DNA from: Nanohaloarchaea archaeon B1-Br10_U2g21
Lineage (GTDB): Archaea > Nanohalarchaeota > Nanosalinia > Nanosalinales > Nanosalinaceae
Length of the DNA: 64,000 nucleotides
Direction of reading: 5' to 3'
NCBI GenBank assembly: GCA_001563915.1
Contig: LKMP01000001.1
Coordinates: 1 to 64,000 of the forward strand
A program made the position numbers and the translations under genes. Within the stretch, counting starts at the first letter, position 1. Every line of letters begins with the position of its first letter. Shown here one piece after another: positions 7,441 through 43,910 of the stretch. Below the pieces are notes generated by a model. The model was not told the origin of the DNA. It was given only the letters and a program-made list of their open reading frames with translations, and did no database searches.

Positions 7441-8592
7441 TTACTCTTCTAAGAAGTCTAAATCCTGCGCCAAGAATTTTATTCCATCTTTGAAGTCATC
7501 ATTATCATAGTTTTCAGGATGCGCACCCATTTCTATAGCTAAATCTAGAGCGTTCTGCGCCAGACTTTCAAGCTTATCTTTGTCTTTTTTTAATTCTCTA
7601 AACGTTACACCGAGATCATACAAATGCGATCCTACAAAGTTCCCGACCTCGTGATCATAGTCTGTATTCATATGGTCTAGATTTCCGCAACCTACTAAAG
7701 TCGAAAAATGACTGGGTGAGGGAGTCGGAACATTATCGAATTCAGGTCTGAAGAGTTCTCCTGATTCAAGTTTTTCTAGGAATTTGCGATGTTGTATTTT
7801 TTTCATTATTTCCATCACTACATAATCAAAATTCTTTTCAATTAAGTCTTGGACATGGTCTCCGTACTCTTTCTCTATTTGATGCCATACCACGCCACTG
7901 TAATCAGAATCGTTGAATTCTTCAACACTGCTCCATACAATATCCTCGTGATCCTGTATATAACAACGGCGAATATTCTCGCTCCAGCTATTGTAAAGCA
8001 GTTCGCTTAACGTTTCTTGGTCAGACTCCCAAAGATCTCGTATCTCTCTTTCGAGCTTTTCATACTCTTCAATACTAGTAGTTTCATCAAAATAAGGGCG
8101 GTCATTATGACCGTAATCTATCATTGAAGAAATATGTTCTCTATCGGGGCCGGAGAACTTTCCAAAAGTCTCTAAATGTCCTTTTACGTAGCCTAAAGGA
8201 TTTCGGTCAAACATTTGATCGCTTTCTACGTATTCTCGGGCTACATTGTCAGCGAAAATCTCATTGGCTAAAATTTCAAGACTATCGTTCATATTGGGCG
8301 AAGCTTTTATCGCGCCGCTCTCGGTCAAAACAGGATCAGCATTCCAGAACTCGCCCTCAACTTCTTGAGCATAAAAGTCGTGAGCTAGTTCGTGCGCTAA
8401 AATATGCATGTTATCTAATTCAATGCCAATGACTGGGGAGTCTTCTTCTCTTCCGATATAGACTCCTCCGCCGTTGCTTCCAGGATAAACAATAACGCTC
8501 TCAGCATCTAAGTCTAGGTCTGAAGCAACGCCTACGACAAATTCTTCTAACTCGGGAGCTAAAGGATCTCTATTACGATAAACTAGGTCCAT
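7441..8592 (-). CDS. Putative zincin metallopeptidase-domain protein
   Basis: HILAHELAH followed by NEIFADNVA (candidate third ligand Glu), an ImmA/IrrE-like arrangement. The C-terminal part is unrecognised. Confidence 0.55.
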   Translation of the reverse strand: MDLVYRNRDPLAPELEEFVVGVASDLDLDAESVIVYPGSNGGGVYIGREEDSPVIGIELDNMHILAHELAHDFYAQEVEGEFWNADPVLTESGAIKASPNMNDSLEILANEIFADNVAREYVESDQMFDRNPLGYVKGHLETFGKFSGPDREHISSMIDYGHNDRPYFDETTSIEEYEKLEREIRDLWESDQETLSELLYNSWSENIRRCYIQDHEDIVWSSVEEFNDSDYSGVVWHQIEKEYGDHVQDLIEKNFDYVVMEIMKKIQHRKFLEKLESGELFRPEFDNVPTPSPSHFSTLVGCGNLDHMNTDYDHEVGNFVGSHLYDLGVTFRELKKDKDKLESLAQNALDLAIEMGAHPENYDNDDFKDGIKFLAQDLDFLEE

Positions 8593-8712
8593 CTAAACAT
8601 TTCATCTGGAACTAACTATAAAAACCACTCGGAGATTTTACTCACTAGCAAATAACAACGTAATGTGTGAGAGTAAAGAACGCTCAAACTCCATTCGTAT
8701 CAACTAAATAAG

Positions 8713-8749
8713 AATAAAAAGAAGGATGAAAGGCCCTGTAAAGGCCTTT
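8713..8749 (-). terminator. Hairpin plus pyrimidine/U-tract, putative 3' end of the candidate RNA
   Basis: Minus strand AAAGGCCU-UUACA-GGGCCUUU followed by CAUCCUUCUUUUU. Confidence 0.5.
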
Positions 8750-9031
8750 AAAAACTTCTTTCGGCAGCGTAACAAATCTTATTCTTTTTTTCTTTCACCT
8801 ATTTAAGGCTTATTCAAGTTTCAAGTCGACAAAATCCAATCTTTTCGGTCAGGCCCTACAACCCAAGTCCCCCTTAGTTGAGGAACAGGCCAGAATCGCC
8901 CAACCTACTCATCCTGTATCACCTATACAGGATAAACAGATTGGAAATATACCTGCTTGTAAAGCTCACATTAACTCGTTCAAAAAACCTTTGCACGGCT
9001 TTTGAGGCTCGAGCTGTGTGAGTCATATCCC
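8715..9031 (-). ncRNA. Candidate structured non-coding RNA of unknown class (~300 nt)
   Basis: ORF-free region with several nested helices whose mismatches become G-U pairs on the minus strand, including a 20-bp hairpin at 8900-8944. TATA-like box upstream; hairpin plus U-tract downstream. Confidence 0.6.
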
Positions 9032-9049
9032 TAAATTGTAGAGCAGCCT

Positions 9050-9057
9050 TTTTAAAA
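9050..9057 (-). promoter_or_regulatory. TATA-like box for the candidate ncRNA
   Basis: TTTTAAAA on the minus strand, about 19-26 nt upstream of GGGATATG (9031). Confidence 0.45.
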
Positions 9058-9096
9058 CTTCGCATCCATAAAGAACCGAGTTCAAAAGCAGATTTT

Positions 9097-10968
9097 TCAC
9101 TCTACTTCATCTATTTGAGCATTCCAGAGTCTCTCATACTTACCTCCTCTTTCAAGAAGTTGTTCATGACTTCCTTGCTCGACGATCCTACCATTCTCCA
9201 TAACTAGTATCTGATCAGCATTCCTTATGGTAGACAATCTATGAGCAATAGCTAAAGTCGTTTTATCCTCTGTTAAACGTTGGATACTCCTTTGAATCTT
9301 CTTCTCTGTTTCAGTATCAACATCGCTCGTGGCCTCATCAAAAATCAGCATTTTCGGATCCTTCAAAATAGTTCTAGCAATAGTTATGCGCTGACGCTGA
9401 CCTCCCGATAATTTAACACCTCTTTCACCCACACGAGTATCATAACCCTTAGGTAAATCTTCAATAAACTCATGGGCTTCAGCCTTTCTAGCAGCATCAA
9501 TAATCTCATCTTCTGAGGCGCTTCTATCACCATAGGCGATATTATCTTTTATTGTTCCAGAAAACAGGAAGGAAGTCTGACCCACATAACCGATATTCTG
9601 TCTTAAACTTTCAACAGAGGTTTCAGAGATATTCTGACCATCAACTTTTATCTCGCCTGTATCGGGTTTGTAGAAAAGAGGCAGAAGTCTTGCAGTAGTT
9701 GTCTTTCCAGCACCTGTAGGACCTACTAAAGCAACTGTGTCTCCGGGCTCTACAACAAATTTAATATCCTCAAGCACTTTTTCATTAGAATTATATGAAA
9801 AATTAACGTTATCATATTCAACTCTGCCTTCTTCTACCTCTAATTCAGAGTCTCTATCTACTATTACTCGTTTTTCATCCATTAAACCAAATATTCTCTC
9901 TGTTGAAGCCTTAGCTCGTTGATACATATTAATAATCTCTCCAAACTGTGCTACAGGCCAGACAAACTGCTGAGTATACAGAATAAAAGTGACAAATTGT
10001 CCTACCATCAAGGTTCCTGTTAAAGGTCCTGGTGCTTCACCGTTTAGAACCCAAAAACTTCCTACTGCAAATGTTACTACGAAACCAAGACCCGCCAAGA
10101 GTCTGATGGCTGGGAAAAATTTGATCCTTATCTTTATGGCTTCCCAGTTAGTATCGAAATACGCTCTAGAAGACTTTAACACGCGAGAAGACTCATATTC
10201 TTCTGCTGTAAAGGCTTTAATTACTTCAATTCCGCCTAAGTTGTTTTCTAGTCTTGAATTTAGTTTCCCCACTGATGCTCGCATCTTAGCATAGCGTGGT
10301 TGTATCGCCTTCACAAAAAAGTATGTGAAAAAGGCTATCAGCGGCACGGGAACGAGCGCGATAAGAGCTAACTGCCAGTTAATCCAGAAGAGGATCCCGC
10401 CAATCCCTAAAACCATTACTCCAAGTCTAAAGCTTGAGTTCATGCCTTCATTCAAGAAAGTCTCCAATTGATTTACATCGTTAGACATAACTGACATTAA
10501 TTCTCCAGTCTGTTTATTCGCGAAAAACCCTAAGTCTAATTGCTGTAAATGATTGTAGGCATCAGTACGAACATCATGCTGAACGTTCTGTGCGAAAAGA
10601 TTGAATCCCCAATTCCTCCAGTAATGGAAGAAAGCTGCGAGAACAAACGAAAAACCTAAAGCACCGACTAAAAACATTAGCTGGCCTTCTTCGGAAACAG
10701 GCAGCTGAGTTTCAGAAAGCAAAGGTAACGCGTCATATAACTCTTGTTCTTCAGTCAAAACTGTGTCAATAGCGATACCAAGAATTAATGGCGGCATTAA
10801 ATCAAGAAGCCGAGAAAAAATGCTTCCGATAACGCCTACTGCAAAAGCGACTCTATACTTATTCCCATAACCTAGGAAAAGTCGCTTCATCGGATTTTCA
10901 ACGTTCTCTCTAATATTTCCGAATGGATCATCTTCAACATTGCTGTAACGCGAAACATTAGTTGCCAT
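9097..10968 (-). CDS. ABC exporter, fused permease/ATPase (MsbA/MdlB-like)
   Basis: Transmembrane N-domain, Walker A GPTGAGKT, LSGGQRQR signature, Walker B LIFDE and IAHRLST. Confidence 0.95.
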   Translation of the reverse strand: MATNVSRYSNVEDDPFGNIRENVENPMKRLFLGYGNKYRVAFAVGVIGSIFSRLLDLMPPLILGIAIDTVLTEEQELYDALPLLSETQLPVSEEGQLMFLVGALGFSFVLAAFFHYWRNWGFNLFAQNVQHDVRTDAYNHLQQLDLGFFANKQTGELMSVMSNDVNQLETFLNEGMNSSFRLGVMVLGIGGILFWINWQLALIALVPVPLIAFFTYFFVKAIQPRYAKMRASVGKLNSRLENNLGGIEVIKAFTAEEYESSRVLKSSRAYFDTNWEAIKIRIKFFPAIRLLAGLGFVVTFAVGSFWVLNGEAPGPLTGTLMVGQFVTFILYTQQFVWPVAQFGEIINMYQRAKASTERIFGLMDEKRVIVDRDSELEVEEGRVEYDNVNFSYNSNEKVLEDIKFVVEPGDTVALVGPTGAGKTTTARLLPLFYKPDTGEIKVDGQNISETSVESLRQNIGYVGQTSFLFSGTIKDNIAYGDRSASEDEIIDAARKAEAHEFIEDLPKGYDTRVGERGVKLSGGQRQRITIARTILKDPKMLIFDEATSDVDTETEKKIQRSIQRLTEDKTTLAIAHRLSTIRNADQILVMENGRIVEQGSHEQLLERGGKYERLWNAQIDEVE

Positions 10969-11308: not shown

Positions 11309-11381
11309 TGCGGAGTCCGGGATTTGAACCCGGGTCACCGGCTTGGAAGGCCGGGGTCTTAGGCCACTGGACCAACTCCGC
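11309..11381 (-). tRNA. tRNA-Gly(TCC)
   Basis: GCGGAGT...CCGGC-CTTCCAA-GCCGG...GGTTCAAATCC...ACTCCGCA cloverleaf. Confidence 0.96.
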
Positions 11382-43558: not shown

Positions 43559-43632
43559 GGGTTCGTGGTCTAGTTGGTTATGACACCGCCTTGACATGGC
43601 GGAGATCCCCGGTTCGAATCCGGGCGAACCCA
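43559..43632 (+). tRNA. tRNA-Val(GAC)
   Basis: GGGTTCG...CCGCC-TTGACAT-GGCGG...GGTTCGAATCC...CGAACCCA. Confidence 0.96.
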
Positions 43633-43766: not shown

Positions 43767-43910
43767 GGGAAAGTAGCTCAGGGGTTAGAGCGCTGCGCTC
43801 ATAACAATGATTATGAGCAATGAGGAGGTCTAAAAGCCTTCGATGATTAAAGTTCGTATCGCTTTATGTGAGATACGCAGAGGTCCCGGGTTCGATTCCC
43901 GGCTTTCCCA
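43767..43910 (+). tRNA. tRNA with CAT anticodon (probably elongator Met), 71-nt intron at 37/38 (43804-43874)
   Basis: GGGAAAG/CTTTCCC-A acceptor stem, CTGCG-CTCATA^A-CGCAG anticodon arm, and a bulge-helix-bulge with CTCA/TGAG central helix. Confidence 0.92.
43804..43874 (+). ncRNA. Putative intron-encoded box C/D guide RNA
   Basis: ATGATTA boxes (43807, 43843), ATGA D' box (43820), and TTATGAGC antisense to the host anticodon loop. Confidence 0.6.

Follow-up and report, generated by a model that had tools for sequence, protein, structure and literature searches.

A family-restricted micro-gene of Nanohaloarchaea whose folded RNA may double as a leaderless mRNA

Introduction

Dual-function coding sRNAs are known from bacteria, with SgrS/SgrT, RNAIII/delta-haemolysin and SR1/SR1P as examples. 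In leaderless haloarchaeal mRNAs, transcription begins at the start codon itself, and the centre of the TATA box lies about 26-27 nt ahead of it. For DPANN archaea such as Nanohaloarchaea, which have tiny genomes, we know of almost nothing described beyond protein genes and universal RNAs. From a halite metatranscriptome, STRG.4577.1 has been reported, a conserved 266-nt intergenic sRNA assigned to 'a member of the Nanohaloarchaea' (PMC7002113). The RNA described here resembles it, compared by description only, in its lineage, intergenic position, conservation across genomes and size class, and the part of that description available to us mentions no reading frame (PMC7002113).

We analysed a stretch of 64,000 nucleotides (the window) from Nanohaloarchaea archaeon B1-Br10_U2g21, in which a preliminary description had flagged a structured region as a new class of non-coding RNA or a very divergent known one. 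The flagged stretch is a real, so far unannotated small gene. Its product is best read as a structured RNA that serves as leaderless mRNA, or as dual-function RNA, for a microprotein ending in hydrophobic-Tyr-X. Like the bacterial dual-function sRNAs, it has a promoter and a terminator of its own, and its predicted transcript, a few hundred nucleotides long, combines a very short ORF with conserved structure both inside and outside that ORF. Unlike them, it is archaeal and apparently leaderless, its ORF running from the predicted first base of the RNA to a hairpin loop, and it has no sequence or Rfam relationship to them. It shares with leaderless haloarchaeal mRNAs the absence of an SD upstream of the AUG and a TATA-AUG spacing that is the peak for genes of its genome. 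In contrast to those mRNAs, only about one third of the RNA is coding, while the other ~200 nt consist of a conserved structured domain and an orphan SD-like motif. In the full-text literature on nanohaloarchaeal small RNAs and on archaeal HbYX small proteins, neither the RNA nor the peptide was found described, and the gene is probably new to the record.

A small gene with its own promoter and terminator

The unit lies on the minus strand at 9063-8711 of the window and is self-contained, with an archaeal BRE/TATA promoter, a predicted transcript of ~316 nt and a hairpin plus T-run terminator:

9049..9063, minus strand: archaeal promoter, with a purine-rich BRE (9063-9058) and a TATA 8-mer (9056-9049).
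8711..8749, minus strand: terminator, with a 9-bp G+C-containing hairpin (8749-8729) followed by a T-rich run (8723-8711).

A TATA-like box upstream and a hairpin with a U-tract downstream had been proposed for the locus, and both are borne out. BRE and TATA stand at fixed spacing and are conserved in 30 of 32 distinct homologs, and in the homologs a T-rich run follows 31-77 nt downstream of the SD-like motif considered below. The TATA 8-mer starts 30 nt before the AUG of the small ORF, which is the peak position for the long ORFs of this genome: among 656 crude genes, TATA-like 8-mers start at -30, -31 and -32 in 13, 9 and 8 cases, over a background of 0-3 at nearly all other positions. Transcription would accordingly be expected to begin at the A of the AUG, or 1-2 bases off. 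In most other genera the predicted transcript is longer, at ~370-400 nt.

The neighbours of the locus are an ABC transporter and a 383-aa protein without a Pfam family. Such flanking genes are common to loci only within a genus, and between genera they differ. Because BRE and TATA keep a fixed spacing, a terminator closes the unit and flanks are shared only within genera, we regard the unit as an independent gene.

An open frame under selection

The region had been called ORF-free. It contains an ORF at 9065-8919, and over its final 35 codons (9026-8919) the open frame is conserved; counted from the predicted start, this frame with its stop takes up the first 108 bases of the transcript:

8919..9026, minus strand: small ORF of 35 codons plus stop, predicted to be leaderless (AUG 9026-9024, UGA 8921-8919; product MTHTARASKAVQRFFERVNVSFTSRYISNLFILYR).

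A frame of 30-38 codons from the same AUG is kept in 31 of the 32 distinct homologs (one with a GUG start), and it has exactly 35 codons in 24 of them. In the variable middle, frame 0 contains no stop in 768 codons, whereas the +1 and +2 frames contain 43 and 47 stops in 737 codons each; the joint probability is ~1e-9.7 over 17 sequence clusters. Length differences between homologs (-15, -6, -3 and +9 nt) all preserve the frame. The stop codon sits at one position and is TGA in 23 homologs, TAA in 7 and TAG in 1, next to a preceding codon that is free to vary. The aligned sequences thus show that selection keeps the frame open and holds a stop codon in its place, and the frame is presumably translated.

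The encoded peptide behaves less like an ordinary protein. Its N-terminus is fixed as Met-Thr/Ser-His and its C-terminus is hydrophobic-Tyr-X in 28 of 31 homologs, X being the very last residue and freely varying, while the middle varies freely at a fixed length. Mean column entropy at codon positions 1, 2 and 3 is 1.02, 1.21 and 1.08, so that codon periodicity is lacking and ordinary amino-acid selection does not act on the middle of the peptide. The locus thus has an open frame, frame-preserving indels and a selected stop codon as protein-coding genes do, and it lacks their third-position freedom and amino-acid conservation, conservation being confined to the termini. The residues conserved at the two termini are encoded where the P1 and P2 stems of the RNA lie (see below), and pairing alone could explain them. 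Searches of Pfam and NCBIfam with the peptide returned no match. AlphaFold2, run on the peptide alignment, gave a single helix with a mean pLDDT of 72.8, which is uninformative for a 35-mer.

These last observations, namely absent periodicity, conserved 'codons' that fall in stems and no protein-family match, are what one would expect if the RNA were purely non-coding, as the preliminary description held, and the frame were an untranslated by-product of RNA constraints. We consider this quite improbable. RNA constraints would not readily account for the stop-free frame 0, for indels that always keep the frame, for a stop position that takes only stop codons next to a freely varying codon, or for an AUG at the leaderless spacing of the genome. 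Nor would they account for an in-frame insertion of 60 nt. The peptide profile matches three metagenomic proteins of 51-55 aa, of which two carry this 20-residue insertion, with conservative differences between them, and the C-terminal ends of the three are LYF, LYK and LYI.

Read-through of the stop into the 3' domain was considered and set aside: the downstream frame is open in some genomes, yet in this genome a stop falls in the hexaloop, and the changes there track pairing and not amino acids.

The hydrophobic-Tyr-X ending recalls the HbYX motif, which is described as docking into the alpha ring of the 20S proteasome, for example at the C-termini of PAN and Cdc48, and as present on ~0.93% of archaeal proteins (PMC11475706). 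In 28 of 31 homologs the last three residues of our peptide have the hydrophobic-Tyr-X form by which such proteins are assigned, and genes for the alpha and beta subunits of the proteasome, for a PAN-like ATPase and for Cdc48 are present in the genome. From its sequence, the peptide may dock into the 20S alpha ring as an HbYX ligand, a mode of action in which such proteins occupy the inter-subunit pocket of the ring and open its gate. In contrast to PAN and Cdc48, however, it is a 35-residue monomer and not a ring ATPase, and the codons of its motif double as an RNA stem. Modelled as a complex, two alpha subunits (41-row alignment) plus the peptide (31-row alignment) scored 0.00 with a mark of 0.32, which speaks neither for nor against docking.

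A folded RNA sharing its bases with the frame

The minus strand at 8700-9060 folds with a minimum free energy of -111.8 kcal/mol (z -4.25, 0 of 100 shuffles as good), whereas the fold of the plus strand is not significant (z -1.80, 6 of 100 shuffles as good), in agreement with the strand and the degree of structure first proposed. RNAalifold applied to a MAFFT alignment of 13 genera-level homologs predicts 38 pairs, 17 of them with compensatory changes. In the consensus fold of 32 distinct sequences, 94.9% of cells are paired and 26 of 38 pairs show two-sided changes, structure counts on alignment A2 being biased towards the model because A2 was fitted to it. None of 500 shuffles reaches the consensus pairing, and slid controls give 29-43%. 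Base-pair covariation in the aligned homologs supports three predicted hairpins (P1, P2 and the 3' domain), whose parts are as follows:

8965..9022, minus strand: P1, a 58-nt hairpin arm inside the ORF, with closing stem 9022-9016 paired with 8971-8965 and a variable tip.
8910..8934, minus strand: P2, a 10-bp hairpin, 8934-8925 paired with 8919-8910, whose 5' strand encodes the last codons of the ORF.
8935..8944, minus strand: 5' strand of the outer P2 helix, which can pair with 8909-8900 as an alternative to P3 here.
8906..8909, minus strand: AGUA, invariant in alignment A1, directly 5' of P3.
8847..8905, minus strand: 3' domain, an irregular 59-nt hairpin made of P3, P4, P5/P6 and a hexaloop.
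8905-8899 with 8853-8847, minus strand: P3, 99.1% paired, two-sided changes in 4 of 7 pairs.
8894-8892 with 8857-8855, minus strand: P4, 96.8% paired.
8890-8880 with 8873-8861, minus strand: P5/P6, 95.4% paired.
8879-8874, minus strand: hexaloop of the 3' domain, fixed at the nucleotide level.
8846-8844, minus strand: GAA, invariant in alignment A1, directly 3' of P3.
8843..8848, minus strand: CCGAAA, invariant, at the 3' foot of the 3' domain.

All seven pairs of the P1 closing stem show two-sided changes, which confirms the CUCACA/UGUGAG stem (9022-9017/8970-8965) seen in the single sequence. Across homologs, the P1 arm folds better than its shuffles (mean z -2.59; z below -2 in 24 of 31). 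The GNRA loop proposed as a cap falls within the hypervariable tip of P1 and is not conserved.

P2 lies within what had been described as an uninterrupted 20-bp hairpin, of which only the inner 10 bp, P2 itself, are conserved. They are paired in 95.2% of cells with two-sided changes in 5 of 10 pairs, and are otherwise nearly invariant, beyond what coding and pairing together would need. The final sense codon of the frame fills the first three positions of the 5-nt loop, and the stop codon contributes its first two bases to the rest: bases 1-3 vary, and bases 4-5 are always U followed by G or A where the stop falls there (29 of 31). The uninterrupted form is particular to this genus. The outer 10 pairs are paired in 75.4% across homologs without covariation or two-sided change, and are lost in several genera; their 3' strand pairs downstream instead, in P3. 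In this genome the two conformations are nearly isoenergetic, at -97.1 kcal/mol with P3 and -95.8 kcal/mol with the outer helix enforced.

No other part of the RNA is as well conserved or covaries as well as the 3' domain, even in the most diverged copies. Two-sided changes occur in 14 of the 21 pairs of P3-P6, and the helices of this domain are recovered by RNAalifold on the independent MAFFT alignment. The UCCUC/GGGGA stem of the preliminary description forms the top of P6 and covaries. Its junction helix GCUUUACAA/UUGUAGGGC and its GCAGGU/GCCUGU stem, by contrast, are absent from the consensus and their sequences are not kept in relatives. About half of the fold first proposed is not conserved. 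In loop-E or sarcin-ricin type motifs, AGUA faces GAA beside a helix and a bulged-G S-turn is formed. The AGUA and GAA that flank P3 have this sequence signature and may form such a motif.

Two further helices were set aside. One would pair the 5' flank of P2 with the region past CCGAAA (8 bp, -11.1 kcal/mol in this genome) and is unsupported across homologs, with p = 0.055 for cognate against non-cognate duplex energies and, in a fixed-register count, 65.0% pairing reached by 130 of 500 shuffles. The other, found in single-sequence folds, would join the linker past P1 to sequence upstream of the AUG, a partner region that lies upstream of the predicted start.

The position of the short frame, which ends in a hairpin followed by an unstructured C-rich stretch, might suggest a leader peptide or attenuator of a downstream gene, and the almost invariant 10+10 inverted repeat of P2 resembles protein-binding DNA palindromes and might serve as a DNA-level operator in place of an RNA hairpin. 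We give this pair of explanations scarcely any credence. The genes downstream vary between genera and, on the opposite strand, are convergent in at least 6 of 20 loci, and each unit closes with its own T-rich terminator. G-U pairs are present in P2 and other helices, and the plus strand has no significant fold.

The tail and its SD-like motif

Past the 3' domain, the RNA continues in a tail of low sequence conservation that contains two short motifs:

8724..8842, minus strand: A/C-rich, G/U-poor tail.
8795..8800, minus strand: SD-like AGGUGA, with no usable start codon after it.
8763..8770, minus strand: ACGCUGCC motif of the short-tail subgroup, where it follows the SD-like element by 20-21 nt.

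The mean composition of 29 homolog tails is A 0.416, C 0.261, G 0.156 and U 0.168, compared with 0.306, 0.196, 0.197 and 0.301 for the genome. The AGGUGA at 8800-8795, already seen in the single sequence, is real: GGUG[AG] occurs in 21 of the 29 tails where 1.7 would be expected from shuffles, at an offset from the AUG of +227 in 6 genomes including this one and of +313 to +334 in 15. The 16S rRNA gene is missing from this assembly, so complementarity to the anti-SD was taken from the relative G005, whose 16S rRNA 3' end is complementary to the motif. Motifs of this class are enriched upstream of the genes of this genome (106 of 658, against a background of 4.2%). A second ORF behind the SD-like motif was rejected, as no consistent start codon or frame is found among homologs. 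The 16-codon mini-ORF suggested earlier for this region is not conserved, and by inspection the closest relative has the shared motif in another frame. ACGCUGCC is read in differing frames between genomes and is therefore an RNA-level motif.

The conserved 3' domain and the orphan motif raise the possibility of a dual-function RNA in which the frame is translated and the RNA is nonetheless the main product. P2-P6 and the unstructured A/C-rich tail would then have their role in trans, whether as a scaffold for proteins or as a regulator that pairs with other RNAs or binds ribosomes, and translation would mainly remodel or license the RNA by toggling between outer P2 and P3. Of the alternatives we weigh, this is the one to be taken most seriously, although we still judge it unlikely. 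It would fit a 3' domain that is better conserved and better covarying than the rest even in the most diverged copies, the fixation of AGUA, GAA, the hexaloop and P2 at the nucleotide level, the unconstrained middle of the peptide, an SD-like motif without an ORF behind it, and the small energy difference between P3 and an outer helix that 75.4% of cells can pair. Against it stand the lack of covariation in the outer-P2 alternative and the loss of that helix in several genera. In addition, a search of this genome for trans-complementarity gave nothing except one T-rich match, and the tail sequences are poorly conserved.

Comparison with known RNA families

In size (~300 nt), promoter and multi-helix fold the RNA resembles archaeal SRP and RNase P RNAs, although neither Rfam model matches it. 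SRP RNA is modelled with helices 5, 6 and 8 and their conserved loops, and RNase P RNA with P4 and the conserved regions CR-I to CR-V. The archaeal SRP RNA model (RF01857, cut-off 96.5 bits) did not hit 8550-9150, with E values of up to 10 allowed, and the archaeal RNase P RNA model (RF00373, cut-off 84 bits) gave none in the same interval. Both RNAs sit elsewhere in this genome, SRP RNA at C2:5795-6075 (98.6 bits) and RNase P RNA at C23:7200-7507 (115.9 bits), so the present RNA is neither, as the lack of their signatures had suggested.

A scan of the window at gathering thresholds with Rfam 15 (4227 models, including IS200/IS605- and IscB-associated RNAs) returned only three tRNAs, all elsewhere. 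The best local match, to drum, has 17.7 bits against a cut-off of 43 (E 0.79), and in 20 homologous loci none of the weakly matching families is seen repeatedly on the RNA. The claim of a new ncRNA class stands as regards a conserved, structured minus-strand transcript with its own promoter and terminator and no Rfam match, and falls as regards its being simply non-coding. A transposon-associated guide RNA (omega RNA of TnpB/IscB) was also considered and rejected, as no TnpB or IscB gene is adjacent.

tmRNA is defined by a tRNA-like domain and a tag frame without its own start codon. Our RNA is like tmRNA in being structured, with a short internal frame, a stop codon in a hairpin and a product ending in hydrophobic residues. 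In contrast to tmRNA, it has an ordinary AUG at its predicted 5' end and no Rfam match, and ARAGORN found no tRNA-like domain or other match in 8500-9200; a tmRNA was rejected on these grounds.

A model for the expression of the gene

On balance we lean towards an independent small gene whose transcript is a folded RNA and a leaderless mRNA together. Ribosomes would load directly at the 5'-terminal AUG and translate 35 codons, for which they would have to melt the 58-nt P1 hairpin and the 5' strand of P2. Termination would take place at the stop codon in the P2 loop, immediately before the conserved 59-nt P3-P6 hairpin. The RNA folds, the invariant AGUA...GAA and the SD-like motif in the A/C-rich tail would most likely act in cis and set the translation frequency of the frame and the lifetime of the RNA, for example with a 30S subunit held via its anti-SD sequence. 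For the 3' domain and the SD-like motif, such a cis-regulatory role is what we infer.

More speculatively, the locus might represent an archaeal dual-function RNA of a new kind, in which leaderless translation switches the outer-P2 and P3 folds, the HbYX peptide docks on the 20S alpha ring (opening the gate or competing with PAN/Cdc48), and the ribosome is bound to the RNA through the 3' domain and the SD-like motif. We regard this as a long shot. If true, translation and proteolysis would be coupled, in a way specific to this lineage, in a symbiont with a reduced genome. Should the C-terminal hydrophobic-Tyr-X be functional in itself, a minimal proteasome regulator would be added to those of archaea.

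Under the folded, leaderless mRNA that we favour, the locus would be a tractable model of how leaderless translation copes with stable 5' structure. It is a clear natural case in which one set of nucleotides is under selection both for RNA structure and for an open frame, with free drift of the middle residues that they encode, and such double selection is a warning for pipelines that search for ncRNAs and small ORFs. A conserved, family-specific and strongly promoted gene has escaped standard annotation both as RNA and as protein.

Distribution within one family

The gene is restricted to one family of salt-loving nano-archaea: a covariance model matches 28 of 50 genomes of this nanohaloarchaeal family and 0 of 20 genomes from other families of the same order. 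Carriers include Candidatus Nanosalina sp. VS9-1, strain M3_22 and Candidatus Nanohalobium. Within the family its occurrence is patchy, and it was not found in complete or near-complete genomes. Diverged tandem copies lie on four contigs and there are at least two paralog lineages, which shows gene mobility or paralogy of the element.

Such a patchy, mobile and tandemly duplicated distribution without conserved synteny, together with a strongly folded mRNA, would be explained by a selfish or addiction module in which a small toxic peptide is made from a heavily folded message. Type I toxin-antitoxin systems of this sort combine a hydrophobic membrane peptide of small size with an antisense RNA whose gene overlaps or adjoins that of the toxin. 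We found neither: by inspection the peptides are Ser/Thr/basic-rich and not hydrophobic transmembrane helices, and a scan with a matrix built from the sense promoters revealed no conserved antisense promoter in or beside the unit, only the palindromic TATA itself being matched. Viral contigs likewise gave no match with model R2 among 80 scored candidates out of 93 stretches found by a pattern scan, the pattern being too loose. An addiction module is thus, in our estimate, very improbable.

A scan of metagenomes yielded three real elements among 80 scored loci, two of them in tandem on one contig. Among the carriers of the RNA is Nanohaloarchaea archaeon SG9.

A compact unit without a known counterpart

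The element is a single compact unit on the minus strand (window 9063-8711), flanked by an ABC-transporter gene and, directly downstream, by a 383-aa ORF.

9063-9049, minus strand: purine-rich BRE and TATA 8-mer
9026-9024, minus strand: conserved AUG, 22 nt after the BRE/TATA
8749-8729, minus strand: 9-bp terminator hairpin, ~316 nt downstream of the AUG
8723-8711, minus strand: T-rich run after the terminator hairpin
9097-10968, minus strand: flanking ABC-transporter gene
7441-8592, minus strand: flanking 383-aa ORF

Strand, promoter and terminator had been placed correctly in the preliminary description. The minus strand of 8700-9060 has an MFE of -111.8 kcal/mol (z -4.25), equalled by none of 100 shuffles, and the plus strand has a z of -1.80, equalled by 6 of 100. 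The 383-aa protein is acidic, and no Pfam family was found for it; with HELAH, a motif of the HExxH type, near residue 66, it is perhaps a metalloprotease-like protein not yet characterised. In other genera, no homolog of it was found adjoining the element.

We found no counterpart of the element in Rfam, Pfam or NCBIfam. At gathering thresholds, Rfam returned three tRNAs away from the element and nothing else in the whole window; a permissive scan of 8550-9150 gave only noise (top match drum, 17.7 bits vs a 43-bit cut-off, E 0.79), and when 20 homologous loci were scanned permissively, no family recurred on the element. ARAGORN detected neither a tRNA nor a tmRNA around the element. That RNase P and SRP signatures had not been seen here is borne out by the genome assembly (815,638 bp, 24 contigs, 92% complete), in which RNase P RNA lies on contig C23 (115.9 bits) and SRP RNA on contig C2 (98.6 bits). 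Elsewhere in the window, at 43767-43910 (plus strand), a tRNA model of 71 positions is matched over 144 nt (58.3 bits), probably because the tRNA gene there has an intron; the tRNAs at 43559-43632 (plus) and 11309-11381 (minus) are ordinary. In genome G002, a tRNA gene (locus L025, 1268-1339) lies ~160 nt upstream of the element, and none was seen there in the other loci scanned.

A full-text literature search found no description of the element. One of its carriers is a record titled Nanohaloarchaea archaeon SG9. A halite metatranscriptome study (PMC7002113) reports STRG.4577.1, a conserved 266-nt intergenic sRNA of "a member of the Nanohaloarchaea", which may or may not be the element.

Conserved fold

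RNAalifold on a MAFFT alignment of 13 genera-level homologs gave 38 pairs, 17 of them with compensatory changes, arranged in three parts.

P1: 58-nt arm whose closing stem covaries and whose tip is hypervariable
P2: 10-bp hairpin of nearly fixed sequence
P3, P4 and P5/P6: irregular 59-nt hairpin with a near-invariant hexaloop

Among 32 distinct sequences, in an alignment that was fitted to the model and hence leans towards it, 94.9% of cells are paired and 26 of the 38 pairs show two-sided changes; none of 500 shuffles reaches these values, and slid controls are 29-43% paired. In 24 of 31 homologs, P1 is folded more stably than its shuffles. The AGUA directly before P3 and the GAA directly after it are both invariant and give the sequence signature of a putative loop-E/sarcin-ricin motif.

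The preliminary description was right that the element is genuine and over-read its fold. Its CUCACA/UGUGAG stem is the covarying closing stem of P1, its UCCUC/GGGGA stem is the top of P6, and its junction helices are not conserved. Of its 20-bp hairpin, the inner half survives as the conserved P2, whereas the outer half is 75.4% paired and has no two-sided change. The 3' strand of this outer half instead pairs downstream to form P3, where compensation is seen in exchanges like U-A to C-G and G-C to A-U. Since the two conformations are calculated to differ by only 1.3 kcal/mol in the source genome, a switch between outer P2 and P3 is conceivable there but unproven. The source genome has an A in its hexaloop (8874-8879, minus strand) where 30 of 32 sequences have C, a one-base departure from the near-invariant loop; the A also puts a stop in frame should the small ORF be read through.

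A predicted leaderless reading frame

The stretch had been called ORF-free, missing a conserved frame that runs from an AUG (GUG in one) for 30-38 codons in 31 of 32 distinct homologs, and for exactly 35 in 24. The first base of the TATA 8-mer precedes the AUG by 30 nt; before the genome's long ORFs, TATA-like 8-mers are most frequent at -30, -31 and -32 (13, 9 and 8 of 656 crude genes; nearly everywhere else the count is 0-3), and a spacing at the genome's own peak is characteristic of leaderless genes. No stop interrupts the 768 codons of frame 0 in the hypervariable middle, compared with 43 stops in the 737 codons of frame +1 and 47 in the 737 of frame +2; shuffles put the joint probability of the open frame at ~1e-9.7 (17 clusters, one sequence each). 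Length differences of -15, -6, -3 and +9 nt all preserve the frame, which ends (TGA 23, TAA 7, TAG 1) at the same place in the P2 loop in 29 of 31, after a freely varying codon. That the element is purely a non-coding RNA seems to us quite improbable.

Column entropy at codon positions 1, 2 and 3 is 1.02, 1.21 and 1.08, with no codon periodicity, and peptide conservation is restricted to the termini, which coincide with stems; both points speak against coding of the ordinary kind. On our reading of these patterns, selection would hold the frame translatable and fix its ends, and P1 pairing would mainly shape the middle. Pfam and NCBIfam gave no match to the peptide. Searching 1.84 billion proteins with a profile yielded three real relatives of 51-55 aa, two of them with a 20-residue in-frame insertion, in which the two differ by conservative changes; a fourth match was a spurious repeat protein. 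In the metagenomic proteins P0002 and P0004 (55 residues), the 20-residue insertion lies just before the conserved C-terminus; the two inserts are mutually similar and contain partial echoes of the C-terminal motif, suggesting an internal duplication.

An A/C-rich tail with an SD-like motif

The tail begins after an invariant CCGAAA and is A/C-rich (A 0.416, C 0.261, G 0.156, U 0.168; genome 0.306/0.196/0.197/0.301). GGUG[AG] occurs in 21 of 29 tails, with 1.7 expected, at +227 in six genomes including the source genome and at +313 to +334 in fifteen, and is followed 31-77 nt later by a T-rich run. This SD-like motif is complementary to the 16S rRNA 3' end of a relative (G005); the archaeal SSU rRNA model found no 16S rRNA gene in the source assembly (92% complete). 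SD-like motifs are enriched upstream of the genome's genes (106 of 658 vs 4.2%), indicating an active anti-SD. Behind the motif, the homologs examined show neither a start codon nor a consistent frame, and the 16-codon mini-ORF proposed earlier is not conserved.

The explanation that we favor, with modest confidence, is a structured leaderless mRNA for a microprotein, whose RNA folds and orphan SD-like motif would act in cis on its translation and stability. The 3' domain and tail could instead act in trans, making the element a dual-function RNA, which we regard as unlikely but worth keeping in mind.

Distribution and copies

The element is real, conserved and confined to one family. A DNA search of 40 relatives, 24 of them from the same family, gave matches in 12 of these 24. 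With 13 genera-level homologs as its basis, covariance model R1 found the element in 28 of 50 family genomes (16 of the 23 that are at least 90% complete), and a second model, R2, in 27 of 49 besides the source genome, in none of 20 genomes from the order's four other families and, with laxer filters, in none of five near-complete family genomes, one of them single-contig. A pattern scan that took one genome for each prokaryotic species gave 19 loci, 18 in records whose titles name Nanohaloarchaea, Candidatus Nanohalobium or Candidatus Nanosalina and the last in an "uncultured archaeon"; none of 80 loci from viral candidates scored with R2 matched.

Members of the same genus have flanking genes in common, and different genera do not. 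A leader for the downstream gene, or a DNA operator, is scarcely to be expected, as downstream genes are convergent in at least 6 of 20 loci. Diverged copies, two or three to a contig and spaced 0.5-1.5 kb, occur on four contigs; wherever this was inspected, each has a promoter of its own. A poorly resolved tree of the 207-nt domain has at least two paralog lineages cutting across genera. A selfish module resembling type I toxin-antitoxin systems is very improbable: the peptides are polar, and a scan found no antisense promoter.

Between tandem copies, promoter-like sequences with no RNA domain behind them score 19.5 bits (locus L042, genome G049, ~+423) and 21.2 bits (L043, G050, ~+467) with the element's promoter matrix, offsets being counted from the AUG of the first copy; these sequences may be what is left of decayed copies. 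In the SG9 record (G010), L035 3014-3207 is a second copy, diverged and lying 1.5 kb downstream of the first, that keeps the 3' domain and lacks AUG and promoter. It scores 49.8 bits with R1 as a truncated locus, and 60.3 (R1) and 74.9 bits (R2) as the full copy, and has perhaps become a pseudogene or a derivative that does not code.

The C-terminus of the peptide

In 28 of 31 homologs the peptide ends in hydrophobic-Tyr-X (LYF 10, LYN 6, LYM 4, others), which fits the definition of the HbYX motif. The genome encodes proteasome alpha and beta subunits, a PAN-like ATPase and Cdc48. In PMC11475706's account of the motif, X has to stand at the C-terminus, and HbYX is present in ~0.93% of archaeal proteins. 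X is likewise the final residue of our peptide; because the same codons build the P2 stem, the resemblance is only a lead. In the source genome, the PAN-like ATPase (contig C12, L293 1432-2706, minus strand) ends in MFA and Cdc48 (contig C13, L291 97-2358, plus strand) in YFA, the penultimate residue of both being Phe, not Tyr.
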